From: an uncultured Thermoleophilia bacterium
Lineage (GTDB): Bacteria > Actinomycetota > Thermoleophilia > Gaiellales > Gaiellaceae
Assembly: GCA_963727515.1 (NCBI GenBank)
Contig: CAVSGN010000008.1
Location: forward strand, 20,146-84,145
Direction: 5' to 3'
Length of the DNA stretch: 64,000 nucleotides
Positions 3,684-37,037 of the stretch are shown one piece after another; position 1 is the first letter of the stretch, and the number at the start of each line of letters is the position of its first letter. The translations under genes and the position numbers were made by a program. Below the pieces are notes generated by a model that was given only the letters and a program-made list of their open reading frames with translations, did not search any database and was not told the origin of the DNA.

Positions 3684-3712
3684 GGCGCGTCGCGTCGACT
3701 ACGCTCAGTGGG

Positions 3713-4597: not shown

Positions 4598-4603
4598 GCC
4601 GGT

Positions 4604-9146: not shown

Positions 9147-9155
9147 GAGGATGCA

Positions 9156-9770: not shown

Positions 9771-9791
9771 AAGCCGCGATCGGTCGCGTAG

Positions 9792-10886: not shown

Positions 10887-10891
10887 CCGGG

Positions 10892-11683: not shown

Positions 11684-11687
11684 CGCA

Positions 11688-14518: not shown

Positions 14519-14585
14519 GTCATCAGTATCGTATCGTCTCCAGTTCCGGCGAAAGCGCAACTTCGACCTAGCTATCGTCCCTCGT

Positions 14586-16053: not shown

Positions 16054-16056
16054 AGC

Positions 16057-16374: not shown

Positions 16375-16386
16375 GGGGGCTTGAAG

Positions 16387-17135: not shown

Positions 17136-17198
17136 TCGGCGTGGTGGCCGGCTTGAGCCGGTCGCCGGGGCTCCGCGGCCGGATAGAGTCGGGCATGA

Positions 17199-19418: not shown

Positions 19419-19458
19419 GATCACGGGGACGTTCACAACGAAGCCAGAGGAGAGTGAG

Positions 19459-19896: not shown

Positions 19897-20290
19897 GATA
19901 TCGGGGCGTCGTGAGCTCCGCGTCGAGGGTCAGGCCGAGCCGATCTCGCATTTCACCGACGCGGTGGAGGCGGGCGGGCTCCTGTTCGTCTCCGGCATCG
20001 TTCCCGTCGACGAGCGTCGCGAGCTCGTCGGCGGAGATGACGTCGTCGCCCAGGCACGGTGCGTGTTCGAGAACATGCGCGCGGTGCTCGCGGCGGGTGG
20101 TTGCACGTTCGCCGACGTCGTGAAGGTGACGGTCTACCTGACGGACGTGAGCGACCGCCCCCTCGTCAACCCCGTCCGCCAGGAGGTCTTCGGCGAGACC
20201 CGCCCCGCCTCGACGCTCGTCGAGATCTCCGCGCTCGTGATCCCGGGAGCAAAGATCGAGGTCGAGTGTGTGGCCCTGATCCCTTCGTGA
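19889..20290 (+). CDS. RidA/YjgF/YER057c/UK114 family protein
   Basis: HFTDAVEAGGLLFVSG, QARCVFENM, DVVKVTVYLTD, PASTLVE, IEVECVA; TTG start inferred. Confidence 0.88.
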   Translation: MAEISGRRELRVEGQAEPISHFTDAVEAGGLLFVSGIVPVDERRELVGGDDVVAQARCVFENMRAVLAAGGCTFADVVKVTVYLTDVSDRPLVNPVRQEVFGETRPASTLVEISALVIPGAKIEVECVALIPS

Positions 20291-20676
20291 GCAGTCGCAG
20301 CGAGATCTCGCTCGCGAGCCGGCCCGTTCTCTCGCATTCCGCGGATGCAGTGGTTGCCGACGGGCTGCTCTTCGTCGCAGGGATCCTGCCGGTCGACGCC
20401 GGCGGGACGCTCGTCGGCGGCGACGATGTGCGGGAGCAGGCCCGGTCCGTCTTTTCCGAGCTCGACCAGATCCTCGCCGCGGGCGGCTGCTCCGGCACGG
20501 ACGTCGCGCGCATCAATGTCTATCTCACCTCGATCGGCGATGCGGGAGTGCTGGACGCGCCGCTACGGCAGACCTGCGGTGTGGCGTCGGTTGCGGGCAC
20601 GGTTGTCGAGGTGAGCGGGCTCGCGATTCCCGGGGCGAGGATCGAGATCGACGCGATCGCGGTGCGGGCGTCGTGA
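20287..20676 (+). CDS. RidA family protein (second, tandem paralog)
   Basis: AVVADGLLFVAG, QARSVFSEL, DVARINVYLT, IEIDAIA; GTGA-coupled. Confidence 0.82.
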   Translation: MSSRSEISLASRPVLSHSADAVVADGLLFVAGILPVDAGGTLVGGDDVREQARSVFSELDQILAAGGCSGTDVARINVYLTSIGDAGVLDAPLRQTCGVASVAGTVVEVSGLAIPGARIEIDAIAVRAS

Positions 20677-21788
20677 GCGGCGATCCCTACAACGCGGCGA
20701 TCACGTGGCTCGCCGAGCCGCTCACCGGCGCGGCCGAAGGGCCGCTCGCCGGCAGGACGCTGCTCGTCAAGGACCTGATCGACACGGCGGGCATCCGCAC
20801 GACGTATGGATCGCGGATCTACGCCGACCACGTTCCCGAGCGCCACGCGTCCGTCGTCCAGCGGGCGCTCGACGCGGGTGCCGTCGTCGTCGGCAAGGGC
20901 AACCTGCCCGAATTCGCGTGGGGGGTACTCGGCGCGAATCCCTGGTACGGAACGGTTCACAACCCGCTGCATCCGGGCAGGACGACCGGCGGCTCGTCGG
21001 CCGGGAACGCGGCCGCGATCGCCGCCGGCCTCGTCGAGCTCGGGCTCGGGACCGACACGGGCTGCTCGATCAGGTTGCCGTCGGCCGCCTGTGGCACCGT
21101 CGGGCTGAAATCGCGGTGGGGCGTGCTCCCTCTCGACGGTGTCTTCCCGCTCTGCCCGTCGTTCGACACGGTAGGGCCGATGGGGCGGACGGTCGAGGAC
21201 GTGGCCCTCCTCTGGTCGGTGCTCTCCGGCGCACCCGTGCCGGAGCCTCGTCTCGACGGGCTCACGATCGGCCTCCTGCGCCGCGCGCCCGATCTCAGTG
21301 ACGGTCGGGAGACGGAGCGGACCGATGCAGGCGAGCAGTGGGTCGCGGACCTCGAGGGGCTGGGCGCGCGCGTCGTCGAGGCAGGCATCCCGCCTCCTCA
21401 GGCGGACATGTGGCCCGTGTTTCTTCGCGAGGCTGCCACGAGCCACCGGGCGACGTTTCCTGCCCGCGCGGACGAGTACGCCGACACGATCCGCTCGAAG
21501 CTCGAAGCGGCGCAGCACGTCACCGACGAGGGCGTCGCCGCGGGGCGCGCCGCGCTCGCGACATGGCGCGCGTACGAGCCGGACGTCGACCTCTACGTCT
21601 GCCCGTGCTACGCGATCGATCTCCCTGCCGAGGATGCCGACGAGCTCGAGGTGCGGCTTCCGCTCTCGTCGTTCCTGCGCTGGGTCAACCTGATCGGCTG
21701 GGCGGGGCTCGCGGTGGGGAACATGCAGTTCATCGCCCCGCACGACACGACGGTTCTTGCCGCCGGCCTCGCGTGGGAGCGTCGGTAG
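20673..21788 (+). CDS. Amidase signature family protein
   Basis: VKDLID, GKGNLPEFAWG, GGSSAG, LGTDTGCSIRLPSAACG (K/S/S triad region). Confidence 0.9.
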   Translation: MSGDPYNAAITWLAEPLTGAAEGPLAGRTLLVKDLIDTAGIRTTYGSRIYADHVPERHASVVQRALDAGAVVVGKGNLPEFAWGVLGANPWYGTVHNPLHPGRTTGGSSAGNAAAIAAGLVELGLGTDTGCSIRLPSAACGTVGLKSRWGVLPLDGVFPLCPSFDTVGPMGRTVEDVALLWSVLSGAPVPEPRLDGLTIGLLRRAPDLSDGRETERTDAGEQWVADLEGLGARVVEAGIPPPQADMWPVFLREAATSHRATFPARADEYADTIRSKLEAAQHVTDEGVAAGRAALATWRAYEPDVDLYVCPCYAIDLPAEDADELEVRLPLSSFLRWVNLIGWAGLAVGNMQFIAPHDTTVLAAGLAWERR

Positions 21789-21827: not shown

Positions 21828-22640
21828 CTAGGTCCCGTCGAACTCGGGCTTCCGCTTCTCGACGAACGCCTCGACGCCCTCGTGGAAGTCGTGCGTCTGC
21901 TGCATCAGCCCGTACGCGAGGCCCTCGAGCTCGAGCCCGACGTGGAGCGGCCCGTCGTAGACGGTGTTGAGGACACGCTTCGACATGGCCAGCGAGAGCG
22001 GCGCGTGACGCGACAGCTCGGTGATCAAAGACGACACGGTCTCGTCGAGCTGTTCGGGAGGAACGACCTCCGTGACGAGACCGATCGCCAGGGCCTCCTC
22101 TGCACCCACCCGCCGGCCACGCATGATGATGTCCTTCGCACGCCCGACGCCGACGAGCCGCGCGAGCCGCTGGGTCCCGCCAGAGCCGGGGATCATCCCG
22201 ATCGTCGCCTCGGGAAGCGCCATCAGCATGTCGTCGGCCGCGATCCGGAAGTCGCACGCGAGCGCAAGCTCGAGGCCGACGCCGAAGACGTACCCCTGCA
22301 GGCGTGCGATCACCGGCTTCGAGCAGCGCTCCGCCGCAGCGACGTTCTTTGCGAGCTGCGAGACGACCCAGGGCGATTTCGTCAGGAAGCCTGCGATGTC
22401 ACCGCCGGCCGTGAACTGGCCGCCCGCGCCGGTGAGCACGACGAAGCGCACCGACTCGTCGCGGTCGAGGTCGGCGAAGACTGCTGCGAGCTGGTCACGT
22501 GCGAGCATCGAGACCCGGTTGAACTTCCCCGGGACGTCCAGCGTGATCGTCGCCACGCCGCGGTCGCCGTCGTGCTCGACCCTGAATCCATCGAAGGCTT
22601 CGCCTCGTTCCTCGGCAAAACCGCTAGATGGGGCGTTCAC
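21828..22640 (-). CDS. hmfE: Crotonase-fold protein, HmfE-like (2-oxoglutaroyl-CoA hydrolase)
   Basis: AGGDI, FGVGLELALACDFRIA, ALPE..IGMIPGSGG crotonase motifs; DGFRVE and SQLA.NVAA..RCSKPVIA segments as I recall them from HmfE; last gene of the hmfABCD-like run. Confidence 0.72.
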   Translation of the reverse strand: MNAPSSGFAEERGEAFDGFRVEHDGDRGVATITLDVPGKFNRVSMLARDQLAAVFADLDRDESVRFVVLTGAGGQFTAGGDIAGFLTKSPWVVSQLAKNVAAAERCSKPVIARLQGYVFGVGLELALACDFRIAADDMLMALPEATIGMIPGSGGTQRLARLVGVGRAKDIIMRGRRVGAEEALAIGLVTEVVPPEQLDETVSSLITELSRHAPLSLAMSKRVLNTVYDGPLHVGLELEGLAYGLMQQTHDFHEGVEAFVEKRKPEFDGT

Positions 22641-22704
22641 AGCGTCGGGCGGAGAATCGAGGATTGCATCGGAAGCCTTTCGTCGTCGAGAAACATGTCA
22701 CTGC

Positions 22705-22726
22705 ACTATCTAACGACTATCTAACG
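22705..22726. promoter_or_regulatory. AT-rich 11-bp perfect tandem direct repeat upstream of hmfE-like gene
   Basis: ACTATCTAACG-ACTATCTAACG in the 97-nt spacer between the CoA ligase and the crotonase genes. Confidence 0.5.
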
Positions 22727-22737
22727 CGATTCCGGTC

Positions 22738-24087
22738 TCAGCCGGAGTCGCTTCGGAGGAGTCTCCGGAGGATCTTCCCCGATGGGCTCTTCGGAAGCGC
22801 CGCCACCCGGCGGTACTCGCGCGGCCGCTTGAAGCGGGCGAGGGCCGAGGCGAGGCAATGCGCGTCGAGCTCGTCGGGAGTTACGTCTCCCACGACGACC
22901 GCGACGACCCGCTGGCCGAGGCGGTCATCGGGGGCCCCGACGACCGCCACCTCGGCGACGCCCGGGTAGGCGGCGAGGATCTCCTCGACCTCGAGCGGGT
23001 GGATGTTCTCCCCGCCGGAGATGATCATGTCGTCGACCCTCCCGTCGATCCAGAGATCGCCGTCGTCGTCGAGGTGCCCGATGTCTCCCGTGTGGTACCA
23101 GCCGTTGCTGATCGCCTTGGCGTCGGCGTCCGGGCGGTTCCAGTAGCCGCCGAAGGCCTCGTCCCCGGTGAGGTGGACGCAGATCTCGCCGTCCGTCGCG
23201 AGCTTCAGGCGTGCGTTCACCGCCGCCCGTCCCGCGCACCCGGGCTTCGCCACCTGGTCGCGGCCGATCGAAAAGGTGTAGATCTCGGTCGAGCCGTAGT
23301 GGTTGACGAACACCTCCGGGTGGAAGACGTCGACGCAGCGTGTCACGACAGTCGATGTCATGGCGGCCCCGGCGTACCCGAGGGCGCGGACGCTCGAGAC
23401 GTCGCGGCGCTCGAGCCCTTCTGCCGTGACGAGGTCGTAGAAGAGCGTCGGGGCCAGGTAGAGCGACGTGATCCGCTCCTCCTCGATCAGGCGGAGCGCG
23501 TCCTGCGGCACCCAGCGCGCCTGGGGGACGTAACAGCCGCCGACGAGATGCATTGCGAGGAGCGAGTGGATGCCCATCGTGTGGTAGAGCGGCATCACGC
23601 CGAGCGTGCGGTCGCCGTGCGCGTAGCCGTGCTGCAACGCCTGGCTGAGCCCACCCGCCCGGTCTGCCGCGTGACTCCGGGGGACGCCTTTCGGCCGCCC
23701 GGTCGTCCCCGACGTGTACAGGAGCAGCGAGATCTCGCGTGGATCGCGATCGAGGGCACCCGGATGCTCCGGCCCGTCGGGCAGCCCGTCGCTCTCGCGA
23801 ACGACCCGTTCGGCGCCCGCGTTGGAGATGCAGTAGTCGAGCTCCTCCTCGTCCAGTCGCCAGGAGAGCGGCACGAAGACGGCGCCGGCCCATTGCGCTG
23901 CCCAGTAGAGAAGCGCCGTCTCGAGCCGGTTGTCGAGCACGACCGCGACGCGCGCCCCGGGTGCCAGGTCCAGTCCGCCGGCGATGCGGGCGATGCGTGG
24001 GACGAGCTCGCCGTAGCGGATGCCGGGGAACGCCTCGAGCTCCGGATGGCGTTCGCAGGCGGCGAGGAGCGACTCGGCGAGGTTCAC
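22738..24087 (-). CDS. hmfD: Acyl-CoA synthetase, HmfD-like (2-furoate-CoA ligase)
   Basis: YTSGTTGRPKGVPR, RTLGVMPLYHTMG, VNHYGSTEIYTF, WYHTGD, GRVDDMIISGGENI, PKSPSGKILRR; GTGA-coupled to the 2Fe-2S gene. Confidence 0.72.
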   Translation of the reverse strand: MNLAESLLAACERHPELEAFPGIRYGELVPRIARIAGGLDLAPGARVAVVLDNRLETALLYWAAQWAGAVFVPLSWRLDEEELDYCISNAGAERVVRESDGLPDGPEHPGALDRDPREISLLLYTSGTTGRPKGVPRSHAADRAGGLSQALQHGYAHGDRTLGVMPLYHTMGIHSLLAMHLVGGCYVPQARWVPQDALRLIEEERITSLYLAPTLFYDLVTAEGLERRDVSSVRALGYAGAAMTSTVVTRCVDVFHPEVFVNHYGSTEIYTFSIGRDQVAKPGCAGRAAVNARLKLATDGEICVHLTGDEAFGGYWNRPDADAKAISNGWYHTGDIGHLDDDGDLWIDGRVDDMIISGGENIHPLEVEEILAAYPGVAEVAVVGAPDDRLGQRVVAVVVGDVTPDELDAHCLASALARFKRPREYRRVAALPKSPSGKILRRLLRSDSG

Positions 24088-24563
24088 TGCCCAGGCTCCC
24101 GCGCCGCGATGATCTCGGCTGCCTCCTCGATGGCGGCGACGATCGGGGCGTAGCCCGTGCAGCGACAGAGGTGCCCGGAGAGCATGTCGACGATCTCCTC
24201 GTGCGACGGCTTTCCGCGCGAGAGCAGGTCGTCGGCGGCGATCAGGATGCCGGGCGTGCAGAAGCCGCACTGGAGTGCGTGCGCGCGCTTGAACGCCTCC
24301 TGCAGCGGCGACAGGAGGTCGTCACCGGCGAGCGACTCGGCGGTCTCGACCACGGACCCGTCCGCCTGCACGGCGAGCAGGCAGCAGCCGCGCACCGAGA
24401 CGCCGTCGAAGCGCACGGTGCAGGCGCCGCAGACGCCGTGCTCGCACCCGACGTGGGTTCCGGTCAGGCCGAGCGTGTGGCGGAGGAAGTCGGTCAGGAG
24501 GAGACGCGGCTCGACCTCCTCGACGACGGTTCTCCCGTTCACGGTCAGCGTGATCTCGGTCAC
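24084..24563 (-). CDS. hmfC: (2Fe-2S) small subunit of molybdenum hydroxylase, HmfC-like
   Basis: GCEHGVCGACT, QCGFCTPG, LCRCTGY. Confidence 0.75.
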   Translation of the reverse strand: MTEITLTVNGRTVVEEVEPRLLLTDFLRHTLGLTGTHVGCEHGVCGACTVRFDGVSVRGCCLLAVQADGSVVETAESLAGDDLLSPLQEAFKRAHALQCGFCTPGILIAADDLLSRGKPSHEEIVDMLSGHLCRCTGYAPIVAAIEEAAEIIAAREPGQ

Positions 24564-25405
24564 GCCGACCGCTCCCAGGCGTGAAGCAGCGCCCGCTCGA
24601 CGAGCGTACCCGTCACCTGCCGGAGATAGGCCGGCGACGCGTGGGTCGAGCCGGCCGGGTCGACCGAAGCCACCGCGAGCGCTCCCACCTCTCGCGCCGA
24701 GGTGGGCGTCACGTGCGACCCCTCGATCGCCTCCTCGATCTCGGCGAATGCGGTCGGATGATCGGTCACCGCACCGATGCGCACCCGCACGTCGCGCGCA
24801 ACGCCCTCGACGCGGCGGAGCACGACGGCGACCATCGAGAGTGCGAAGTCGCCGGCGCGAAGGGCGATCTCCTCGAACGCCGCCCCCTCGCCCTCGGCCG
24901 GATGCGGCCAGAGCGTGTCGACGACGAGCTCGCCCGGGGCGAGTGTCGTCAGGAAGTGCGTCACGAAGAACTCGTCGGGTGCAACCTCGCGGCGGCCTGC
25001 CGTCCCCTCGACCCCGATCGTCCCGCCGAGCGCCGCGAGGCAGAGCGGGATCTCGGCCGAGCCGTCGGCGTGCGCGACGCTGCCGCCAACCGTGCCGCGA
25101 TTGCGCGTCACGAAGTGCCCAACGAACGGAAGTGCCTCGCGCAGCAACGGATGCGTGCGGAGGTCCCGCTCGAGCGTTGCCTGCCGTACGGTCGCCCCGA
25201 CGCGAAGGACGCCGTTCGAGTCGATCGTGTCGAGCCCCGCCCGGTTCACGTCGACGAGGAGCGTCGGCCGTACGAGACGCATGTTGAGCGCCGGCACGAG
25301 GCTCTGGCCTCCCGCGATCGGCTTTGCGTCCTCGTCGCTCGCGAGCGCTGCGATCGCTTCCTCGGTCGAGCGGGCCGCGACGTACTCGAAGGCGACGGGC
25401 TTCAT
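24560..25405 (-). CDS. hmfB: FAD-binding medium subunit of molybdenum hydroxylase, HmfB-like
   Basis: MKPVAFEY, IAGGQSLVP.LNMRL.RP, GHFVTRNRGTVGGSVAHAD, RAGDFAL. Confidence 0.75.
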   Translation of the reverse strand: MKPVAFEYVAARSTEEAIAALASDEDAKPIAGGQSLVPALNMRLVRPTLLVDVNRAGLDTIDSNGVLRVGATVRQATLERDLRTHPLLREALPFVGHFVTRNRGTVGGSVAHADGSAEIPLCLAALGGTIGVEGTAGRREVAPDEFFVTHFLTTLAPGELVVDTLWPHPAEGEGAAFEEIALRAGDFALSMVAVVLRRVEGVARDVRVRIGAVTDHPTAFAEIEEAIEGSHVTPTSAREVGALAVASVDPAGSTHASPAYLRQVTGTLVERALLHAWERSA

Positions 25406-27708
25406 GCCGGAGCTCCGTCCTGGAGAAGGTCCCAGACGCGCGGCGGCGTCAACGGCAACTCGACGTCGTCCCGCCCGATCGCATCGGCGACCGCATTCGC
25501 GATACACACGGGCGCGCTCATCGTGTTGCCCTCGCCGACCCCCTTCGCACCGAGCGCGGTCACCGTGGACGGCGTCGAGAGGTGCCCGATCGTGAGCGCG
25601 GGGATGTCCGGAGCGGTCGGCGTGAGGTAGTCGACGAGCGATGACGTCATCAGGTTTCCCGACTCGTCGTAGATGTGGCGCTCGTAGAGTGCGGCCGCGA
25701 CGCCGTGAGCGAACCCGCCGAGCACCTGCCCGTCGACGAGCAGAGGGTTGAGGAGGCGACCGGCGTCGTGCACGGTGACGTAGTCGAGAACGCGGACGAG
25801 GCCGGTCTCCCGCTCGACCTCGACGGCGCAGACATCGACGATGAAGCCATGCGACGCCGACGACGCGATCCTGTCGTCGTCGTCCGGCGGGTCGAGCGTT
25901 GGCGGTGCCCAGAAGGCGACTGCCGAGAGACCGGGCTCCTCATCCGGCGGAAGCCCTTCCGGGTTCCAGTGAGCCATGCCGGCGACGCGACGAAGGGACA
26001 GCTCGGCGTCGCCCGCGTGGGCGCGGATCGCGTCGATCTTCGCCCTCAGCTTCAGCGCGGCCGCCTGAACCGCGCCGACGGCGACGCCGGAGAAGCGCGA
26101 CGAGTACGCTCCCGACGCGACGCTCCACGGCACGCTCGCCGTGTCCATCTCCGCCATCACCGTGACCTCGTCCGGGGAGCAGCCGAGCGCGTCCGCGACG
26201 ACCTGCGCGCAGACCGTCCGGTGGCCCTGGCCCTGGGGTGTCGTCGCAAGTCGCACGGTGATGCCGCCGAGCGGGTTGATCGAGATCGAGGCCCCTTCGG
26301 CGTTCCCCGACTTCGGGAGGGTCAGCGCGCGCTCGTCGGCGGTCTGCGCCAGGGTGATGTAGCCCATGTTGGAGATCGAGGGCTCGACCACGCAGGTGAG
26401 CCCGATGCCGGCGAGCCGGTCATCCGCCCGCGCCGCGACCACCCGAGCCCGCAGCCCGGCGTAGTCGGCGAGCTCGAGCGCGCGGTCGAGGCATGCTGAG
26501 TAGTCGCCACCGTCGTAGAGCGCGCCGGACGGCGTCCGGTACGGCATCGCGTCCGCCGCGATCAGGTTCCGTCGCGCCAGGTCGGCCGGGTCGAGCCCGA
26601 GCCGCCGGGCAGCGATCGCCATTGTGCGCTCGAGGCCGAAGTAGAGCTGCGGGCCACCGAAGCCGCGGTTCAGGCCCGACGGCTGCGTGTTCGTCAGCAC
26701 GACCCGGTTGCGGACGCCCACGTTCTGCACCGCGTACGCACCCGCGAGCGAACCGTGCATGCGGTACAGCGTCGCCGGCTCGGGAGCGCGGACGTACGCG
26801 CCGACGTCCTCGACCGCGTCGTAGCGGAGAGCGACAAGGCGACCGTCGGCCTTGAAGCCCGCCTCGACGACGGTCGTGCGCCCCGTCGACGCCGAGCTCG
26901 AGGCGAGGTGCTCGAGCCGGTCCTCGATCCACGTGACCGGCACGCCGAGATGACGCGACGCGAGACCCATGAGGACGATGTAGGTGAACACCGAGGACTT
27001 GACGCCGAACGAGCCACCCGAGTCGGGCGGCGTCAGGAGCCGGAGGCGGTCGCCCTTGAGCCCGAGCGCGGCGGCCGCGACGCCGTGCAGCGTGAACGGC
27101 CCCTGGAAGTTCGCCCACGCGGTCAGTCGGCCGGCGGCTGCGTCCCAGTCTGCGACGACCGCGTAGCACTCGACAGGGGTACACGTGAAGCGCGGCACGT
27201 GGAACGCGTGCTGGAGCACGACGTCCGCCTCCGCCATCGCACCGTCGACATCGCCGTACACGAACGCCCGATCGTGGATTGCGGCCGCCGCGAGGGGATC
27301 GAGCACGGGATCGAGAGGGTCGTAGTCGACGTCGACGAGCTCGGCGGCGTCCTCGGCCAGGTAGCGATCGCGGGCGACGACGACGGCGATGGGCTCGCCG
27401 ACATACCGCGCCGTGTCGACGGCAGTCGCGTACTGGGGGGTGCCGCTGTCGATCCCCGCGGGGAACGGCCGGGACAGGGCAACGACGTCCGCGCCCGTGA
27501 GCACGCCGATCACGCCCGGAGCCGCCAACGCGGCAGACGCGTCGACTGTGATGTGCGCGTGCGCGAGCTGCGACCGGACGACGGCCGCGTGGTAGGAGTG
27601 CGCCACGGGTGCGAGATCGTCCAGGAACCGGCCCTCGCCGCGGAGCAGGGCATCGTCCTCGACGCGTTGCAGGGGCCGACCGACCCAGGGCTCGGAGCTC
27701 GCGGTCAC
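25402..27708 (-). CDS. hmfA: Molybdopterin-binding large subunit, HmfA-like (2-furoyl-CoA dehydrogenase)
   Basis: QRVEDDALLRG, GGSFGVK, GLNRGFGGPQ, PQGQGHRT, ASGAYSSRF, HDAG..LNP..VDGQ..GG, GAKGVGEG; lacks the CODH AYxCSFR motif. Confidence 0.72.
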   Translation of the reverse strand: MTASSEPWVGRPLQRVEDDALLRGEGRFLDDLAPVAHSYHAAVVRSQLAHAHITVDASAALAAPGVIGVLTGADVVALSRPFPAGIDSGTPQYATAVDTARYVGEPIAVVVARDRYLAEDAAELVDVDYDPLDPVLDPLAAAAIHDRAFVYGDVDGAMAEADVVLQHAFHVPRFTCTPVECYAVVADWDAAAGRLTAWANFQGPFTLHGVAAAALGLKGDRLRLLTPPDSGGSFGVKSSVFTYIVLMGLASRHLGVPVTWIEDRLEHLASSSASTGRTTVVEAGFKADGRLVALRYDAVEDVGAYVRAPEPATLYRMHGSLAGAYAVQNVGVRNRVVLTNTQPSGLNRGFGGPQLYFGLERTMAIAARRLGLDPADLARRNLIAADAMPYRTPSGALYDGGDYSACLDRALELADYAGLRARVVAARADDRLAGIGLTCVVEPSISNMGYITLAQTADERALTLPKSGNAEGASISINPLGGITVRLATTPQGQGHRTVCAQVVADALGCSPDEVTVMAEMDTASVPWSVASGAYSSRFSGVAVGAVQAAALKLRAKIDAIRAHAGDAELSLRRVAGMAHWNPEGLPPDEEPGLSAVAFWAPPTLDPPDDDDRIASSASHGFIVDVCAVEVERETGLVRVLDYVTVHDAGRLLNPLLVDGQVLGGFAHGVAAALYERHIYDESGNLMTSSLVDYLTPTAPDIPALTIGHLSTPSTVTALGAKGVGEGNTMSAPVCIANAVADAIGRDDVELPLTPPRVWDLLQDGAPA

Positions 27709-27777: not shown

Positions 27778-28854
27778 CTACCCGAGCAGCCCGCGGCGCC
27801 GCGCGGTGTACGTCGCCTCGGAACGGGAGCTCGCGCCGAGCTTGCGGAACAGGCTGCGGGCATGCGTCTTGGCGGTCGTCTGCGAGATCCCGAGGCTGTC
27901 GGCGACCTGGCGGAACCGCATCCCGCGGTCGAGGCACGAGAGCACGTCGAGCTCGCGGGGAGTCAGCGCAGTCTCCTGCCGACGCACCCGGCGCCGCGGC
28001 AACCACGATTGTCCCCGCGAGACGGCGTCCACCGCGAGCGGCAGCGCGTCCTCGACCTCTGCGCGGAGGACGAACCCGGTCGCGCCCGCTGCGAGCGCGA
28101 CACCCAGGCTGTCGCCGCCGTCGTGCGGGGCGACGACGAGGAGAGGGGCGTCGACGCCGGCCGCGCGGAGCTCGCCGATCCAGGCGTCGATCCGCCGGCC
28201 GCCGAGCGCAAGGTCGCCGATCACGACGTCCGGTGCCCGGAGCGGGCCGGAGCGGACCGCGTCGGACGGCGAGCGCGCAAGTGCGGCGCGTGCGAGACCC
28301 GTCTCCTCGAGGAGACGGGCGATGCCGTGGCCGACGAGCGGGTCGTCATGACAGACGAGCACCGTTGTCGGGGTGATCTCGTCCGGCTGGGCGAGCGCGA
28401 GCGACAGCGGCCCGAGCAGCGGCTCCACGAGCGCGCACGCATCTGCCGCCGTCGACCCCGTCGTGTCGAAATGGAGATTGAGCGCCCCTGGTCGCCCCTG
28501 CGGATGCCGAAGGGGCAGCGACGCGCCGGAGCGGAATCCGTGCTCGCGGACGATCCTGTCGAGGGGTCGCGAGAACCCGCGCCGTTGATCGAAGTCCGGT
28601 GAGACGAAGACCTTGTCGTCGGCGGCGCTTCGGTGATGCGTCGACGTGCCGAGGGGGAAGCGCGTCCCGGGACCGAGTAGTGCCTCGCCGCGGGCCTCGA
28701 GGATCTCGAAGGCATCGTCGTCGGCATCGATCTCGGAGAACGAGACACGCGCGGCGCCGACCGCCTCGAGAATCCCGTCCGCTACCTCGGCGAGCTTCGC
28801 CTCGCCGTCCGTCAGCATCTGCCCGATGTCTGCGATCCGGTCGGTCTGGGCCAT
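27778..28854 (-). CDS. GAF + atypical receiver + LuxR-HTH transcriptional regulator
   Basis: N-terminal GAF-like region (G.RS.ASLPL, LNLHF), middle VLVCHDDPLV..PDVVIGDL..GATGFVLR, C-terminal LTPRELDVL...IS.TTAKTHARSLFRKLGASSR. Confidence 0.85.
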   Translation of the reverse strand: MAQTDRIADIGQMLTDGEAKLAEVADGILEAVGAARVSFSEIDADDDAFEILEARGEALLGPGTRFPLGTSTHHRSAADDKVFVSPDFDQRRGFSRPLDRIVREHGFRSGASLPLRHPQGRPGALNLHFDTTGSTAADACALVEPLLGPLSLALAQPDEITPTTVLVCHDDPLVGHGIARLLEETGLARAALARSPSDAVRSGPLRAPDVVIGDLALGGRRIDAWIGELRAAGVDAPLLVVAPHDGGDSLGVALAAGATGFVLRAEVEDALPLAVDAVSRGQSWLPRRRVRRQETALTPRELDVLSCLDRGMRFRQVADSLGISQTTAKTHARSLFRKLGASSRSEATYTARRRGLLG

Positions 28855-28875: not shown

Positions 28876-29193
28876 TCAGCGGGAATGCCGCCTGGCCGCG
28901 AGCGCCACTTCCTCGTCGCTCGGGCCGCCGTGCTCGAGAGCCCTGAAGGCGATCAACACCGCGCGCGGATCACGGGCGTGGCGTTGCGCCGCCAGGGTCA
29001 GCGGCTCTCGAACGGCTCCGCCGCAGTGGGCGCACGGCCAGTAGATCCGCGACATCAGCTGCGCGGCCCGCCCGTCCGGATACATCCTCAGGATCTCGAG
29101 GATCGTCGTCGAGCCGCGGATCTCGCGGCGCAGGGTGTCGCCGTCGGCAACACCCTGCGCCGGGAGAAAGCCCGGGATCGCGGTTCGGGACAC
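28876..29193 (-). CDS. Small CxxC protein, DUF1858/redox-disulfide-domain-like
   Basis: TTILEILRMYP..AAQLMSRIYWPCAHCGGAVREPLTLAAQRH resembles the DUF1858 pattern; start codon uncertain. Confidence 0.6.
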   Translation of the reverse strand: MSRTAIPGFLPAQGVADGDTLRREIRGSTTILEILRMYPDGRAAQLMSRIYWPCAHCGGAVREPLTLAAQRHARDPRAVLIAFRALEHGGPSDEEVALAARRHSR

Positions 29194-29209: not shown

Positions 29210-30633
29210 CTACACCGCCGCGTGCGCGAGGATGCTCGGCTCGGCCGATGCCATCCGCACGGCGTTCCGTGGGAGCTGGTAGCGGGCGTACGGCAGGATC
29301 GCCACCTTGGCGTCTGCGCCGTGGCGTGCCATCGCGGCTGCGAATGCCTCGTCGAGCGAGCGTCGTCGCCTCGATCCCGATGTCGGCCGCCATGGCGAGG
29401 TTCTCCTCCAGCGTCACGACCGTCAGGTGCTTGCGCGTCATCACCTCGTAGATCGGCACCCAGATGCAGCCGGCCCACATCTGGATCTCGCGCATGTGGA
29501 TGTCGTGCAGCACCTTCTGGTAGTTCTCGGTCGTCGCAGGCATGTACGGCTTCATCAGATCCATGAGCGCGAAGCCGGGGAAGTCGCCGATCGCGGTCGA
29601 GACACCGGGAGACGGGCTCGTGTAGATGATCGTGCCGCCGTCCTTGAGCACGAGATCGGCGGACATGCAGCCCCAGCCCGTGTGGAAGAAGAGATGGTCG
29701 GTCGGCGCGAAGACGCCGCAGATGACGATGTCGGCCTGCCCCTTCTCCTCGACCCAGCTGTCGTAGGCGTAGATCGCGTTGAAGCGCCGGATCGCCTCGC
29801 GGTGCGCCTCGGGGTGGGAGCCGAAGATGCAGTCGATCACGCGACCGTGCGTGTCGAGGATGACGTTCATCGTGCAGTCGAGGCCGCACATCGTCGCGAC
29901 CTCGTCGATATCCGAGCGCATCGGGCCGGCGTAGGCGCCGTAGTGCGTCTGTGGCGAGGTGACGAACGCGCAGTGATTCGACTCGACCGTCGCGTCCGAG
30001 ACGACGCCCGGCAGGATCAGCTTGCCGCCTCCCCCTGCGCCCCAGTGGTTCGCCTGCGCCTGACCGATCGTGATCTTGAGCTCGGCCGACGCCACCTCGT
30101 TGTGCAGCCAGACGGGAGTCCCGCCCGACGAGACGCCGACGAACGTGTAGACGTCCGGGTTCTGGGGGTCGTTCTGGTGGAAGGCCCAGCCGTTCGCCTC
30201 CATCCGGGCGAGGTTGTCGCGCCCGATCTTCTGCTCCATGTCCGACTCGGACATCGGGAAGACCTTGCCGTTGGCGCACACGACGCGAACGTCGCTAACT
30301 CCGGCGGCCTCGATGGCGTCGAATACAGGAGGCAGCAACTTCGAGGAGGGGGTGGGTCGAAACTGGTTGTCGATGATCACTGCGATGCTCGTCTTGCCGG
30401 AGAGAAGCGCGGCGAAGCTCGGCCCGTCGAACGGCTCGGCGAGAGCCGACGTGCCGCCTCGGTCGAGTCGCCGACCGGGGACGGCTCGTCCGGGTAGATC
30501 GCCGCGACGAGGTTGGCCGCGGGGATATCGAGCTAAGGGTGTCCCGGTGCTTCTTCGACTCGTCATCGGTCGCACCGATCGCGAGGGGATCCATCGACTC
30601 GTACGGGATCACGGCATGGTAGGTATCGCTCAT
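29210..30633 (-). CDS. LarA/DUF2088 (nickel-pincer lactate racemase superfamily) homolog; frameshifts about 30530-30450 and 29355
   Basis: IAVIIDNQFRPTP, GTPVWLHNEV, NHWGAGGGGKLILPGV, ESNH, PEAH, ADIVI, DGGTII, ILPY: LarA-like order of motifs. Confidence 0.75.
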
Positions 30634-30831: not shown

Positions 30832-31962
30832 GTGAACGATAAGACTGCACAACTCGACATCCGGCAACTCGCCCCCAAGCTCGCCGTCGGGCTCCTCGTG
30901 GGGTTCGTGCTGCTCTACGTGATCGTCCTTGCGAAGCCGGTGGACGAGTTCGGCACGGGTGGCTGGCGATCGACCAACACCGGCTCTGCGATCGACAACC
31001 CCGGGGCTCTGGTCTACACCTTGCTCGACGCGATCACGTTCGCCGGGCTCCTCTTCATCGTCGCGAGCGGCTTCTCGCTCATCTTCGGGCTCATGCGCAC
31101 CGTCAACATGGCCCACGGCTCCCTCTACCTCCTCGGCGCCTACATCGCGTACGAGGTCCAGCAGAGGATGACCGGGCAGGGCTTCTCTGTCCAGCCGACC
31201 GAGGTCAACACGTGGGAATGGGTCGTCCCTCTCCTCGTCGCGATGTCGGTCATCGCCGTCGTCGGCGTCCTGATCCAGCAGCTCTTCCTGCGTTGGAACC
31301 AGGGTCAGGATCTCCGACAGGCGCTGATCACGATCGCGATCTCGGTGATCGTCGCCGATCAGGTGATCGCTCACTTCCCGCGCAGCGTCCCCGACGGCTC
31401 GGCGCGATTCGGGGGGAACGCCGTGAGCCTCGGCTGGCCCGGCTGGACGAACCGCCTCGTCGATCTCCACGTGTGGGACACGAGCTACTCGCTCGCCCGG
31501 CTGGTCATGCTCGCGCTCGGCGTGTCGGTCGGGATCGGGCTCTGGCTCTGGCTCTACAAGACGAGGACGGGGATGGTCATCCGCGCCGGGGTCGACGACC
31601 CGCAGATGACCTCCGCGATCGGCATCAACATCCAGGTCTTCTTTGCGATCGCGTTCGCCGTCGGCGCGGCTCTCGTCGCTCTCGGCGCGACCGTCGGTAC
31701 CTCGCAGGGCAACATCTCGCAGGGCCAGGACGGGGTCTGGCTGCTGTATTCGCTCGTCGTCGTGATCATCGGCGGCATGGGCTCGCTGCTCGGCGCCGTC
31801 GCCGGGTCGCTGCTCTTCGGGCTCGTCACCGCGTTCTCCGTCACGTACCTGCCGGTTTCGGGTACCGATTGCTGCACGCAGTACTCGCCGGTCCTCACGT
31901 TCGTGCTGATGGCGGTCGTGCTCGCGTTCCGGCCGCAGGGGCTCTTCGGGAGGGCCGGATGA
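30832..31962 (+). CDS. Branched-chain amino acid-type ABC transporter permease (LivH-like)
   Basis: ASGFSLIFGLMRTVNMAHG, KTRTGMVIRAGVDD, VVIIGGMGSL.GAV, RPQGLFGR. Confidence 0.92.
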   Translation: MNDKTAQLDIRQLAPKLAVGLLVGFVLLYVIVLAKPVDEFGTGGWRSTNTGSAIDNPGALVYTLLDAITFAGLLFIVASGFSLIFGLMRTVNMAHGSLYLLGAYIAYEVQQRMTGQGFSVQPTEVNTWEWVVPLLVAMSVIAVVGVLIQQLFLRWNQGQDLRQALITIAISVIVADQVIAHFPRSVPDGSARFGGNAVSLGWPGWTNRLVDLHVWDTSYSLARLVMLALGVSVGIGLWLWLYKTRTGMVIRAGVDDPQMTSAIGINIQVFFAIAFAVGAALVALGATVGTSQGNISQGQDGVWLLYSLVVVIIGGMGSLLGAVAGSLLFGLVTAFSVTYLPVSGTDCCTQYSPVLTFVLMAVVLAFRPQGLFGRAG

Positions 31963-33021
31963 CCCTCTCCTCCACGAAGGCCCTCGTCGAGCGGAGCATC
32001 GGTGTCGGCGTGCTCGATCCTCGCGTTGCTGGCACCCGTCCTCGTCTCGGACTTCTGGCTCGACACGGTTCTCACCCAGACCTTCATCCTCGGCATCGGG
32101 GCCGCGAGCCTCGTGTTCCTCTCCGCCTACGGCGGGATGATCTCGCTGGCGCAGGCGGGTCTGATGGGCATCGCCGGATATGCGCTCGGGAACATGGTCA
32201 CCCAGAACGTGCCGGGCGGTGAGACCAAGGGGCTCCTGCTCGGGTGGAATCCGTCGCTCGCCGTCGTCCTCGCCATCCTGTTGACGGTGGGCCTCGGGTT
32301 CATCTTCGGTGCCGTCGCGTCACGGAGCTTCGGGATCTACTTCCTGATGCTCACTCTCACGTACTCGGTGATCGCGTACCTGTTCGTCAGCCAGGTGACG
32401 CAGGTCGGCGGCTTCTCACCGATCGCCGGCGTCGACGAGTACACCCCGGGATTCATCGGAGACGTCGTCAACGACCGGCAGCGGCTGTACTACGTCGCGC
32501 TCGGCGTTGCGATCGTCATCTACGGGCTGATCCGCTACCTCGTACGGACACCGTTCGGGATCTCGTTGCAGGGGATCCGCGACGAGCCTTCGCGGATGGC
32601 GTCGCTCGGCTACAACGTCGCGTTGCACCGGACTCTTGCCTTCGGCATCGGCGCGTTCGTGGCTGCGGTCGGTGGTGTCCTCTTTGCCTGGTGGTCGGGG
32701 CAGCTCTCGCCGTCGAACATCGGCCTCGCCGCGACGATCGAGTTGCTCGTGATCGCGGTGATCGGAGGGCTCGGCCGGATCGAAGGCGCCTGGCTCGGCG
32801 CGTTTGCCTACATCGTGATCAACAACGAGGTGACGAACAGGATCCCGGCCGACGGGCTGCCGGTGGTAGGCGGTACCTTCAACACGGTCATCGGCGTCGT
32901 GTTTCTGGCGATCGTGATCGCGTCCCCCGACGGACTCGTCGGGATCTGGGACAGACTTTGGGATCTCGCGCGTTCGCGAGAGCCCGAGCAGCCCGCCGCC
33001 GAGGCGAGCGCGGCAGGGTGA
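31959..33021 (+). CDS. Branched-chain amino acid-type ABC transporter permease (LivM-like; frameshift about 32010)
   Basis: GMISLAQAG, GIYFLMLTL, RTPFG.SLQGIRDEP, VIGGLG..EGAWLGA, PDGLVG. Confidence 0.88.
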
Positions 33022-33081
33022 GGAGGAGGCGGGGAAGGAGGTCGGAGTCGGCTCGATGAAGGGCTTGCAACGGAGTTCGAG

Positions 33082-33095
33082 GGAATATGTATTCC
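33082..33095. promoter_or_regulatory. Inverted repeat upstream of substrate-binding protein gene
   Basis: GGAATA-TG-TATTCC in an AT-rich 100-nt spacer, 26 nt upstream of the ATG. Confidence 0.35.
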
Positions 33096-33121
33096 AATCA
33101 TCCAACGAAGGAGGAACGGCA

Positions 33122-34528
33122 ATGAAGCGACGACAGGGGTGGGCAATCCGCCTCCTCGTCTCGATCGGGGTGATCGCGGTCGGAATCGCCGCGATCGCGT
33201 CCGTATCGATGGCGTCCTCAGCGGCGACGGGCACGGTCCGCGTCGCGATCATGAGCGACTGCAAGGGAGCCTTCGGTTTCGCGCAGGAGCTCGGAATCGG
33301 TGGCGCCCAGACTGCGTTCGCCCAGTTCGCGAAGGGCAAGGTGAAGAACAAGAAGAAGCCGTCGGCGGGCATGACCGGCATCACCGCGGGTGGCAAGAAC
33401 ATCAGCATCGTCGGCTACGGCTGCGGTGACGACACTCCGGCGACCGCCCTCAAGGAGGTTCGCCGGCTAATGCAGCAGCAGAAGGCCGACGTCCTCATCG
33501 GGCCGCTCTCGGGTGACGAGGCAGTTGCCATCGCCAACTGGGCCAAGCCGCGGCCGGCGAAGACGGTCATCATCGGCACGGCCGGGTCGCAGGATCCGAC
33601 GCTGCAGATCGCGCCGAAGAACGTGTTCCGCTACCACGGCGACGGCGCCCAGTGGAACGCAGGCATCGGTGAGATCGTCTACAAGAAGCTCGGCTGGCGC
33701 AGTGCTGCGATCATCATGGACGACTACTCGTTCGGGTGGACGTCTGCGGCAGGCATCATCGCCGACTTCTGCGCGATCGGCGGCAAGATCACGAAGCGCG
33801 TGTATCCGCCGCTGAACACGACCGACTACTCGTCGTACGTCCGCCAGTTGCCCAAGCCGGGTGACGTGGACGGCTACTTCTGGGTCGTCGGCGGCACGGG
33901 CACAGGCCCGGCGCTGAAGGCGTTCGAGCAGGCCTACGGCCCGATCAACGCGAAGCAGCATTCCGGCAACCTGTTCCTCTGGTTCCTGACCGGGAAGGAC
34001 GATGTCGCCCCGCGCATGATCGGCGCGTACGTCGGCGGCTTCGGGACGGCGCCCGGGTTGAAGGGCGTCACGGCCACAAACCAGTACCGGAAGTTCGTGG
34101 CGAAGACCTATTCGGGGATGCCCTCGGACGACGGGTTCTTCTACAACTACTACCAGGGCGCGCGCGCACTGGTTCAGGGCCTGAACGGCTCCAACGGTGC
34201 CGTGGGTGCCAAGCTGCAGGCGAACATGCCGCGGTCGATTTTCGCCCCGTTCGAGCTCTCGGACAACGGCAAGGTCAAGCTCGACGCGAACCGCCAGGCG
34301 ATCCAGGATCAGTGGCCGGTTCAGATCATCAAGGGCGCGGACGGTGGCCCGGCGATCACGCTCACCGGGTACGTCCCGAACGTGAATCAGTCGTTCGGTG
34401 GCCTGTTCACGAAGAACAGCCCGCCCCCGAGCCGCACGCAGCCTCCGTGCGTGAAGAAGAAGCTGCCGTGGCAGGGCCATATCCGTGTGGTCAAGAACGG
34501 CCGCGTTACCAAGCAGGTCATCAAGTAA
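33122..34528 (+). CDS. ABC transporter substrate-binding protein (Leu/Ile/Val-binding type)
   Basis: Signal peptide (MKRR + hydrophobic stretch + ASMA-SS), VLIGPLSG, DDYSFG, YPPLNTTDYSSY; strong SD AAGGAGG. Confidence 0.9.
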   Translation: MKRRQGWAIRLLVSIGVIAVGIAAIASVSMASSAATGTVRVAIMSDCKGAFGFAQELGIGGAQTAFAQFAKGKVKNKKKPSAGMTGITAGGKNISIVGYGCGDDTPATALKEVRRLMQQQKADVLIGPLSGDEAVAIANWAKPRPAKTVIIGTAGSQDPTLQIAPKNVFRYHGDGAQWNAGIGEIVYKKLGWRSAAIIMDDYSFGWTSAAGIIADFCAIGGKITKRVYPPLNTTDYSSYVRQLPKPGDVDGYFWVVGGTGTGPALKAFEQAYGPINAKQHSGNLFLWFLTGKDDVAPRMIGAYVGGFGTAPGLKGVTATNQYRKFVAKTYSGMPSDDGFFYNYYQGARALVQGLNGSNGAVGAKLQANMPRSIFAPFELSDNGKVKLDANRQAIQDQWPVQIIKGADGGPAITLTGYVPNVNQSFGGLFTKNSPPPSRTQPPCVKKKLPWQGHIRVVKNGRVTKQVIK

Positions 34529-34532
34529 CACG

Positions 34533-35318
34533 GTGACCGATGCAGCAACATCCGCTGCTGACGCCGGCCCGATCCTCCGCTTGCGGGGGGTCGGCCGGCG
34601 TTTCGGCGGCCTGCTCGCCGTGAGCGACGTCGACCTCGACGTCGCTCAGGGTGAGCGTCGCGTTGTGCTCGGCCCGAACGGCGCCGGCAAGACGACGCTG
34701 TTCAACCTCATCTGCGGTGACATGCCTCCGTCCGGCGGCACGATCGAGCTGTTCGGCGAGGGTGTCACCGGGCGACCCCCGCGGGCGCGCGTGAAGCTCG
34801 GCCTCGCCCGCACCTACCAGCAGTCAAAGCTCTTCCTCGGCCTGACGGTCGAGGACAGCATCTACCTCGCCATCGTCGGGGTCGAAGGGGGGCGCCTGCG
34901 ATCGATCCGCCGTCCGGGCCTCGATCGCGAGATGCGGGAGCGCGCGAGGGCAGCTGCCGGTCGCGTGGCGATCGACGGGAAGCTCGGAGACCGCGTCGGC
35001 GACCTCTCGCACGGCGAGCATCGCCAGGTCGCGATCGCGATGGCGCTCGCCGCCAACCCGAGGGTGCTGATGCTCGACGAGCCCGCCTCGGGACTGTCCC
35101 GTGGTGAGCGGGGGCTCCTCACCGACCTGTTGCTCTCGCTCGACCGGTCGATCACTCTCATCCTCATCGAGCACGACATGGACATCGCGCTCACTGTCGC
35201 GGACAGCGTGACGATGATGCACGACGGCCGCGTCATCGTCGAGGGAACGCCGGACGAGATCCGCGCCAACGAGATGGTCCACGATCTCTACCTCGGGCGC
35301 GGGCACCATCATGAGTGA
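34533..35318 (+). CDS. ABC transporter ATP-binding protein (LivG-like)
   Basis: GPNGAGKTT, LSHGEHR, MLDEPASG, IEHDMD. Confidence 0.93.
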   Translation: MTDAATSAADAGPILRLRGVGRRFGGLLAVSDVDLDVAQGERRVVLGPNGAGKTTLFNLICGDMPPSGGTIELFGEGVTGRPPRARVKLGLARTYQQSKLFLGLTVEDSIYLAIVGVEGGRLRSIRRPGLDREMRERARAAAGRVAIDGKLGDRVGDLSHGEHRQVAIAMALAANPRVLMLDEPASGLSRGERGLLTDLLLSLDRSITLILIEHDMDIALTVADSVTMMHDGRVIVEGTPDEIRANEMVHDLYLGRGHHHE

Positions 35319-36084
35319 GCAGCCGCAGGCCATGATGCCTCCTCCCGTGGCAGAGACCGAGACGTTGCTGGAGGTCGAGAACTTGAACGCCTTCTACGGA
35401 AAGGCGCGGGCTCTCGAGGATGTGAGCTTCCGAATGGCGCACGAGTCCGTCGCGATCGTAGGACGGAACGGAATGGGCAAGACGACGCTGTGCAACGCGA
35501 TCATGGGCATCGCTCCTCCGTCCGCGACCGGCTCGATTCGCTTTGCGGGCGAAGAGATCATCGGTGGTCACTCGTACCGGATCGCGCGGGATGGGATCGG
35601 CTACGTCCCGCAGGGGCGGCGTCTCTTTCCCTCGCTCACCGTCGACGAGCATCTGAGAATCGCTTCCCGGGGCGCGACGACGGACGGCGGCAGCGATTGG
35701 ACGAGGGAGAGGGTCTACGACCTCTTCCCGCGTCTTGCTGAGCGGAAGCGCAACGGTGGCGCGCAACTCTCGGGCGGCGAGCAGCAGATGGTCGCCATCG
35801 GCCGTGCGCTCGTCACGAACCCGCGCCTGCTGATCATGGACGAGCCGTCCGAGGGACTGGCCCCCGCGATCATCGAGACCATGGTCGAGACGTTCCAGCG
35901 ACTCGAGAGCGAGGGGCTCGCGATCCTCCTGATCGAGCAGAACCTCGGCGTCGCGACCGCGCTCGCAACGCGCCAGCTGATCATGGTCGCCGGAAGCATT
36001 GCCACCGAGACCACCGCTGACGTGCTCTCCGGCGATCCGGAGCTGCAGCGACGCTACCTCGGCGTGGAGCCGCTGGCCAAGTAG
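35311..36084 (+). CDS. ABC transporter ATP-binding protein (LivF-like)
   Basis: GRNGMGKTT, VPQGRRLFPSLTV, LSGGEQQM, MDEPSEGLAP, IEQN. Confidence 0.93.
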   Translation: MSEQPQAMMPPPVAETETLLEVENLNAFYGKARALEDVSFRMAHESVAIVGRNGMGKTTLCNAIMGIAPPSATGSIRFAGEEIIGGHSYRIARDGIGYVPQGRRLFPSLTVDEHLRIASRGATTDGGSDWTRERVYDLFPRLAERKRNGGAQLSGGEQQMVAIGRALVTNPRLLIMDEPSEGLAPAIIETMVETFQRLESEGLAILLIEQNLGVATALATRQLIMVAGSIATETTADVLSGDPELQRRYLGVEPLAK

Positions 36085-36116
36085 GCTGTCCCCAGCTTGA
36101 CTCTCTGCGAACCATC

Positions 36117-37036
<920 letters not shown>

Positions 37037-37037
<1 letters not shown>

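Follow-up and report, generated by a model that had tools for sequence, protein, structure and literature searches.

The DNA analysed here is a stretch of 64,000 nucleotides from contig CAVSGN010000008.1 (assembly GCA_963727515.1, an uncultured Thermoleophilia bacterium; hereafter "the window"). Its minus strand carries five co-directional genes that resemble hmfABCDE, the genes of the 2-furoyl-coenzyme A (CoA) pathway known from Cupriavidus basilensis HMF14 and other Proteobacteria (Koopman 2010; Wierckx 2011, PMC3223595; Donoso 2021, PMC8091172). A gene for a LarA-like protein lies upstream on the same strand. These genes, at their positions in the window, are:

25402..27708, minus strand: A, hmfA-like molybdopterin large subunit (768 amino acids; Pfam Ald_Xan_dh_C, MoCoBD_1, MoCoBD_2)
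24560..25405, minus strand: B, hmfB-like medium subunit binding flavin adenine dinucleotide (FAD) (281 amino acids; Pfam FAD_binding_5, CO_deh_flav_C)
24084..24563, minus strand: C, hmfC-like small subunit with two [2Fe-2S] clusters (159 amino acids; Pfam Fer2, Fer2_2)
22738..24087, minus strand: D, hmfD-like AMP-forming acyl-CoA ligase (449 amino acids; Pfam AMP-binding, AMP-binding_C)
21828..22640, minus strand: E, hmfE-like crotonase-family enzyme (270 amino acids; Pfam ECH_1)
29210..30633, minus strand: LarA-like (Lar_N) putative nickel-pincer nucleotide (NPN) enzyme ("LarN"), assigned from Pfam, PDB and NCBIfam comparisons, motif alignments, and synteny

The five-gene order and the coordinates had been put forward in a preliminary description of the window, and both were reproduced by the listing of open reading frames (ORFs), by translation, and by Pfam searches. 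Gene A may start at the GTG at 27708 (768 residues) or at an upstream TTG at 27744 (780 residues). Overlaps of 4 nt (ATGA/GTGA type) were found at the A/B, B/C, and C/D junctions, and a gap of 97 nt separates D from E. Because all five genes could be aligned end to end and in a single frame with their orthologues, they are free of frameshifts, as had been stated. The reference loci and about 80 genome loci share the arrangement A-B-C-D-E on one strand. A scan for promoters and terminators yielded no signal above chance.

The clusters of Cupriavidus oxalaticus and Dinoroseobacter shibae served as close proxies for that of HMF14. The former is plasmid-borne and features genes for a LysR regulator, UbiD, UbiX, and a TTT-family substrate-binding protein, followed by A-B-C-D-E; the latter resides on pDSHI01. 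D. shibae has been confirmed to degrade furfural, and its HmfA and that of HMF14 share 54% identity (PMC3223595). The window proteins have 40-60% identity to these proxies. For A, B, C, D, and E, respectively, identities to the references were 50-53%, 40-44%, 55-60%, 45-47%, and 48-51%, compared to 54%, 51%, 61%, 60%, and 72% between the Cupriavidus and Dinoroseobacter proteins. In one survey, an HmfA at least 45% identical to that of C. basilensis was used as the criterion (Donoso 2021); by proxy only, A is 52.8% identical to C. oxalaticus HmfA and 50.2% identical to the plasmid copy of C. pinatubonensis. The 2011 review used HmfA, HmfD, and HmfE homologues of at least 40% identity in close vicinity (PMC3223595); in the window, A, D, and E are contiguous and at least 40% identical to the proxy clusters. 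Best matches were reciprocal, in that every reference protein picked the corresponding cluster gene in the window. In the search for the ligase, D scored 410 bits and the runner-up ligase 158 bits.

The placement of A was examined by several means. When A was compared to all plasmid records, identities were bimodal: hmf-type proteins fell at 43-53%, and other proteins from the xanthine-oxidase family (CoxL-like, nicotine dehydrogenase, and others) at 36% or less. The best PDB match was mycobacterial CoxL at 383 bits, against 754 bits for HmfA; 4-hydroxybenzoyl-CoA reductase (1rm6) reached only 180 bits. A neighbor-joining tree was calculated from 87 large subunits with 100 bootstraps. In 100/100 replicates, A was grouped with HmfA in a clade split from CoxL, NdhC, and the other outgroups, and not with other xanthine-oxidase-family hydroxylases. 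The actinobacterial proteins were monophyletic (99/100) and adjoined the proteobacterial clade, with the Bacillota clade (Geobacillus) outside both. A set of 75 HmfA-specific positions was defined by at least 90% conservation in proteobacterial and Bacillota HmfA together with absence from no fewer than 80% of the outgroups; A retains 83% of them, and its changes are mostly conservative. The active-site loop of A reads GLNRGFGGPQ, which we take to resemble that of xanthine dehydrogenase, not that of CO dehydrogenase. Judged by its sequences, the cluster belongs to the hmfABCDE family, with the same five protein families, gene order, and large-subunit clade as in Proteobacteria.

Other identities for the enzyme were considered. 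The best NCBIfam names (CO dehydrogenase, glyceraldehyde dehydrogenase, xanthine dehydrogenase, and 4-hydroxybenzoyl-CoA reductase) were ruled out by score, by the identity gap, and by the tree. For CoxL, the scores were 443.9 against a cut-off of 950 and 396 against 991; for HcrABC (4-hydroxybenzoyl-CoA reductase), the alpha, beta, and gamma models gave 275 against 995, 69 against 405, and 156 against 258 bits. The enzyme does share with CoxLMS the three-subunit molybdenum/FAD/2Fe-2S architecture, and maturation genes of the CoxD/CoxE/XdhC type are present in the window. In contrast to CoxLMS, to which identity is about 30-36% with scores far below cut-offs, it is encoded together with a CoA ligase and a crotonase. 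An affiliation with haloarchaeal relatives (43% identity), as "another CoA-dependent molybdenum hydroxylase", was also discarded, as these branch outside the clade of the window protein.

Two sets of relatives have gene contents of their own. The HmfA-like sister group to which the haloarchaeal proteins belong (43-48% identity; 63% of the 75 HmfA-specific positions retained) is represented by positions 5382-13113 of a Halobaculum roseum plasmid (L005) and by loci L074, L083, and L084. Its layout is ligase, FAD subunit, 2Fe-2S subunit, large subunit, and second ligase, together with a PaaI thioesterase and BenE, and there is no crotonase. From its sequences, it looks like another uncharacterised CoA-dependent molybdenum-hydroxylase system. 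Outside Actinobacteria, the closest relative of the actinobacterial HmfA clade was found in a Candidatus Dormibacterota metagenome-assembled genome (MAG; L063, positions 1770-6774). Its cluster is rearranged (A, E-like, B, C, E-like), and the 14-kb contig contains no ligase gene.

The window cluster departs from its proteobacterial counterparts in several respects. Cupriavidus and Dinoroseobacter HmfA (1030 and 983 amino acids) both carry a CoxG/SRPBCC-like C-terminal extension of about 190 residues. This domain is missing from the 768-residue A, in accordance with the preliminary description, and the trait is general: the extension was present in 45/58 non-actinobacterial HmfA proteins and in 0/18 actinobacterial ones. 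CoxG is a membrane-tethered menaquinone shuttle for molybdenum-containing CO dehydrogenase and is sometimes fused to CoxL (PMC12202499). Using three CoxG sequences as tblastn queries, no free-standing CoxG was matched in the window. The SRPBCC gene at 19459-19896 was considered for this role, but it is Polyketide_cyc2, not COXG, and the hit it gave was marginal (E=0.12); it is a candidate at most. With no CoxG domain fused to A and none detectable in the window, a free-standing electron carrier is possible. The ligase is about 60 residues shorter than the proteobacterial one, and the regulator gene of the window is LuxR/NarL-like and not of the LysR or AraC type.

In the A-B-C-D-E order and in a large subunit without the fused C-terminal domain, the cluster resembles that on plasmid pHTA426 of Geobacillus kaustophilus HTA426. 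Identities between the two are 49% (A), 35% (B), 59% (C), 42% (D), and 57% (E). Only the Geobacillus cluster has a separate coxG between A and B, the counterpart of the proteobacterial C-terminal extension, an xdhC, a gene for a MocA-like nucleotidyltransferase, and UbiD; it has no LarA-like gene.

The actinobacterial clusters are further distinguished by their pairing with the LarA-like gene. A LarA-like gene was located upstream of A on the same strand in all of the 20+ Thermoleophilia and Acidimicrobiia loci recovered by the HmfA search, and it was absent from all proteobacterial, Bacillota, and other loci recovered by that search. It is the conserved sixth gene of the actinobacterial cluster. 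The preliminary description had called the cluster "complete"; all five hmfABCDE genes are indeed present, but this upstream gene was missed. The LarA-like gene is better conserved than A (73-93% against 57-76% identity to the window copies). The interval between it and hmfA is occupied by larE, larC, and larB in roughly half of the actinobacterial loci. By NCBIfam, LarE scored 288-294 bits against a cut-off of 150 and LarC 163-200 bits against 90; fragments of LarB, at 134-143 bits, were below the cut-off of 175. An Acidimicrobiia MAG (L022) has nine co-directional genes in the order LarA-like, larE, larB, larC, A, B, C, D, and E.

The linkage was also approached from the opposite direction. 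A metagenome scan was seeded with the LarA-like family alone, yielding 41 contigs with at least 1.5 kb of downstream sequence. Twenty-five of the 41 reach hmfA, 14 stop within 5 kb, and two with at least 5 kb lack hmfA; hmfA was thus reached in 25 of the 27 informative contigs. Most of the 14 short contigs end inside the larECB or GlcDE spacer. By Pfam, one of the two exceptions (L160) has a large LuxR-type regulator, and the other (L151) mostly unassigned ORFs. The link is therefore reciprocal, in that searches from either gene lead to the other.

Several features relate the LarA-like protein to the LarA superfamily, namely the Lar_N domain (Pfam E=1.6e-27), the cofactor-holding residues, the adjacent larB, larC, and larE in related genomes, and a phmmer match in the PDB to Mar2 (E=1.7e-31). 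Characterised LarA enzymes are only 22-31% identical to the protein, which falls short of all NCBIfam cut-offs (162 against 500 bits). Foldseek searches with a low-confidence AlphaFold2 model returned LarA-family structures in all of the top 19 positions (template-modeling scores of 0.44-0.69). Equivalents of Arg75, of Lys184 (the covalent tether), and of His200 (a nickel ligand) are kept in the motifs FRPTP, GGGGK, and SNH, which do not vary across the family and which the window copy also has. In place of the His108 motif A(T/S)GxHR, however, there is an invariant ANGKVFP. At the position of His174, MAFFT aligns a histidine (NHW) that HMMER places one residue off. The family constitutes essentially one 50%-identity cluster in a set of 1.84 billion representatives; its nearest full-length relatives, at 44% and 34-36% identity, also lack His108.

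Public annotations name this gene a lactate racemase. Judging by its motifs, it is unlikely to be a plain racemase. The published single-histidine LarA groups 14-16 lack or replace His174 (PMC12611868), whereas it is His108 that is missing here. The genomic partner also differs from those of other LarA proteins, being a molybdenum-hydroxylase/CoA pathway and not sugar or hydroxy-acid genes.

It could be argued that hmfABCDE operates here as it does in Proteobacteria and that the LarA-like protein is a mere neighbor, i.e. a 2-hydroxy-acid racemase or epimerase of a separate pathway (for example, one feeding 2-oxoglutarate via 2-hydroxyglutarate) whose proximity stems from shared regulation or ancestry. 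In Acidimicrobiales, the spacer after the LarA-like gene (L020, 4761-8811; L021, 1120-8780; L134) contains genes for GlcD/GlcE-like FAD 2-hydroxy-acid oxidases, and genes for an FAH-family hydrolase and an NAD-dependent epimerase/dehydratase precede it, all co-directional with hmfABCDE; such flanking genes suit a separate pathway. So does the opposite orientation of the larE/larC/larB spacer genes in many loci, which means that the region is not always one transcript, and so does the regulator gene that separates the LarA-like gene from hmfA in the lineage of the window. On the other hand, the linkage is bidirectional and extends over two classes in which other neighbors vary, the family is essentially a single 50%-identity cluster whose nearest full-length relatives are 44% identical, and the protein has no His108, which is needed for two-base racemisation. 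A mere-neighbor relationship is accordingly regarded as improbable.

The window copy of the LarA-like gene, compared to an intact 475-residue orthologue, changes frame three times, owing to 1-nt indels near 29360-29362, 30445, and 30533. Four independent short-read runs (salt-marsh, soil, and sediment) contained near-identical populations, and at precisely these three places their contigs show single-base indels relative to the window. The frameshifts are thus probably indel errors of the source assembly and not gene decay, and a pseudogene reading of the gene was rejected in view of these contigs. Other genes of the window are likewise out of frame with respect to intact orthologues: those for a short-chain dehydrogenase/reductase (SDR; two changes), a cupin-like ORF (one), a thiamine-pyrophosphate (TPP) enzyme (two), and xdhC (one). 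The frame-shifted regions are 16387-19403, 5668-6773, and 29210-30633. Together, these apparent lesions might suggest that the locus is undergoing decay or has lost its function in this organism. That is highly improbable, as the five hmf genes and the regulator, transporter, amidase, and RidA genes are all intact and the four runs carry the corrected base count at the three positions in the LarA-like gene.

Further genes of the window that are relevant to the cluster are:

27778..28854, minus strand: transcription factor resembling LuxR/NarL-type response regulators, extended at the N terminus by about 160 residues (Pfam, NCBIfam)
28906..29121, minus strand: small conserved ORF (tblastn, 87% to a 95-residue gene of locus L003; no Pfam match)
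30832..36084, plus strand: Liv-type ABC transporter, comprising two permeases, a substrate-binding protein, and two ATPases (Pfam)
14295-21788, plus strand: ten-gene operon convergent to hmfE, conserved across Gaiellales and not in Acidimicrobiia
3581-6773, plus strand: CoxD-like AAA ATPase, CoxE-like VWA protein, and XdhC/CoxI-like chaperone (molybdenum-hydroxylase maturation genes)

The LuxR/NarL-like gene was encountered between the LarA-like gene and hmfA in L003, L006, L007, and L019 and was absent from the other actinobacterial loci; the insertion is limited to the close lineage of the window. In most actinobacterial loci, the genes of the Liv-type transporter are transcribed divergently from the LarA-like gene and lie immediately upstream of it; they probably encode the uptake system. 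In D. shibae and several Proteobacteria, a Liv-type transporter is located after hmfE, although the binding proteins are only about 23-25% identical. Downstream of the transporter (36021-39072, plus strand) are a PD40 beta-propeller gene and then a pair of UPF0261 and PEP_hydrolase-like genes; the PD40 and UPF0261 genes are syntenic in L003, whose locus ends before the third gene. The maturation genes are 16-20 kb from the hmf-like cluster. The ten-gene operon encodes an aldehyde dehydrogenase, a NIPSNAP protein, the SDR, the cupin, the TPP enzyme, a small ORF (164 residues in L003; not mapped in the window), an SRPBCC (Polyketide_cyc2) protein, two RidA proteins, and an amidase. Its aldehyde dehydrogenase could in principle oxidise furfural.

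No UbiD or UbiX homologue (hmfFG) was found by tblastn in the window, and no GMC oxidoreductase of the hmfH type turned up in Pfam scans of most window ORFs, in agreement with the prior statement that hmfFGH-like genes are missing. The cluster, standing alone without hmfFGH, resembles those of lower-pathway-only Proteobacteria, and it fits a lower-pathway-only organism because there is no UbiD or UbiX in the window. Among 99 proteobacterial strains, 44 had the lower pathway only (Donoso 2021, PMC8091172).

Taken as a whole, these data favor, with a rough probability of 0.6, an actinobacterial (Gaiellales) cluster orthologous to that of the CoA-dependent furoate pathway; from orthology we infer its substrate and chemistry. 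The Liv-type transporter would import a small heteroaromatic carboxylate, most likely 2-furoate, and D would convert the acid to its CoA thioester. The A-B-C enzyme, using its molybdenum cofactor, FAD, and two 2Fe-2S clusters, would hydroxylate C5 with water and pass the electrons on to an acceptor. Hydroxy-furoyl-CoA would tautomerise to a lactone, the ring would open, and crotonase E would finish the conversion to 2-oxoglutarate and CoA. Consistent with this last assignment, both crotonase catalytic glutamates (E124 and E144) are invariant in the alignment of E, which is 48-57% identical to HmfE when Geobacillus is included.

The part of the LarA-like enzyme in such a scheme is its most speculative element. 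The enzyme might act by internal hydride transfer on an α-hydroxy ring-opening intermediate or by-product; the GlcDE-like oxidase genes in Acidimicrobiales point to a 2-hydroxy acid in the neighborhood. Conceivably, a conjugated butenolide tautomer would open to 2-hydroxyglutaconate or its CoA ester, which the NPN would transiently oxidise; 2-oxoglutarate would form once the hydride was handed back to the conjugated carbon, and one base would be needed, not two. That the protein is a single-histidine (His108-less), hydride-shuttling NPN isomerase catalysing a real step of a furoate-type pathway is doubtful.

A number of observations weigh against the furoate assignment or the role proposed for the LarA-like protein. 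None of the five proteins reached an NCBIfam equivalog cut-off, and all Thermoleophilia matches are MAGs. D retains 80% of all conserved HmfD positions and intact core adenylation motifs, but only 54% of 37 HmfD-specific positions; it also has two loop deletions (about 30 and 17 residues) in surface segments, which are common to the Gaiellales orthologues. This divergence, as read from the alignment, leaves room for an altered acyl specificity. There is no larB, larC, or larE in the 64-kb window. The AlphaFold2 model, built on a shallow alignment, has a mean predicted local distance difference test score of 57, with the active-site region below 50, and serves for fold assignment only. The canonical pathway needs no LarA-like step; because the gene is nonetheless strictly linked, a different chemistry or substrate may apply. 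Finally, the amidase and two RidA genes convergent beside hmfE in Gaiellales would suit an N-heterocycle.

Some of these points raise the possibility that the same enzymology serves another five-membered heteroaryl or substituted carboxylate as native substrate (pyrrole-2-carboxylate, thiophene-2-carboxylate, or a substituted furoate), whose product after ring opening would be processed by the LarA-like protein and, in Gaiellales, by the amidase and RidA. A pyrrole-derived lactam would need an amidase and an enamine/imine deaminase, and the convergent amidase and RidA genes persist across Gaiellales down to 68-70% identity in A. The loss of about half of the HmfD-specific positions and the loop deletions in D, the restriction of the strict LarA-like linkage to Actinobacteria (proteobacterial and Bacillota loci being without it), and the low identity of the transporters' binding proteins to proteobacterial ones would also be explained. 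Against another substrate stand the HmfA-specific positions kept by A and the place of A inside a bracket of clades that hold known furoate or furfural degraders. In addition, the amidase and RidA genes are on the opposite strand in a separate operon that is missing from Acidimicrobiia loci, and no characterised gene cluster for hydroxylation of thiophene- or pyrrole-carboxyl-CoA was found for comparison. Another substrate is a less probable alternative, and the furoate pathway is preferred.

The G+C content of the window is about 69%. Among species-representative genomes, the best locus was in an uncultured Thermoleophilia MAG (A, 95% amino-acid identity; DNA, 92% over 22 kb). In that collection, Gaiella/Gaiellaceae MAGs at 68-89% and then Acidimicrobiia at 60-62% followed, below which identity dropped in one step to about 50% (Proteobacteria, Bacillota, and a few other phyla). 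The closest large-subunit proteins overall were 95%, 93%, and 91% identical, the named ones being from Thermoleophilia or Gaiella MAGs. No genome of a cultured Thermoleophilia strain was among the 80 loci recovered. By these identities, the source is a Gaiellales-type Thermoleophilia genome, from a bacterium of soil or sediment, which upholds the earlier attribution to such a host. No RNA runs containing the locus were listed. Sampled words of the window reached a maximum of 24% in any public DNA run, and no run was identified as the source sample. Elsewhere in the window, genes for malate synthase and isocitrate lyase (the glyoxylate shunt) are close together at 55789-57759 and 59648-60982, both on the minus strand. 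Positions 47023-52478 (minus strand) contain co-directional genes for a second amidase, a ketopantoate-reductase-like protein, a second AMP-forming ligase, and a gamma-glutamyltranspeptidase, and a fragmented further AMP-binding ORF lies at 12543-14264 (minus strand).

The hmfABCDE identity of the cluster is not new by itself. The preliminary description had presented a pathway documented mostly in Proteobacteria in an actinobacterial host; pathway and host stand, but Gaiellales homologues are already named "2-furoyl-CoA dehydrogenase" large subunit and "2-furoate-CoA ligase" in IMG/JGI, and Gram-positive hmf clusters were noted in the 2011 review (PMC3223595). What sets the actinobacterial version apart is the LarA-like coupling together with the missing CoxG domain. 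A literature search for LarA with furoate or furoyl-CoA returned no relevant paper, and one for Gaiella with furoate returned nothing relevant; a broader search combining furoyl-CoA with actinobacterial names was swamped by unrelated papers. In the literature searched, the coupling of an hmf cluster to a His108-less LarA-like enzyme and cofactor-synthesis genes appears to be unreported.

Furoate and furfural are common products of sugar dehydration in soil, compost, and lignocellulose hydrolysates, and Gaiellales and Acidimicrobiia are abundant and mostly uncultured. To our knowledge, almost all known degraders of these compounds are Proteobacteria. From the conservation of the furoate-type pathway, a carbon source for Gaiellales and Acidimicrobiia is suggested, which might also serve to enrich them. 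Given the missing CoxG domain, it may be asked how these hydroxylases are connected to the respiratory chain. The function of single-histidine LarA homologues is currently open (PMC12611868, PMC7583248), and the LarA-like coupling provides a concrete genomic context in which to assign one to a single-histidine nickel-pincer enzyme. If the proposed role of the LarA-like protein were true, it would be the first NPN reaction other than racemisation to be assigned to a defined catabolic route, and the abundant Gaiellales of soil would need nickel as well as molybdenum to break down furans.

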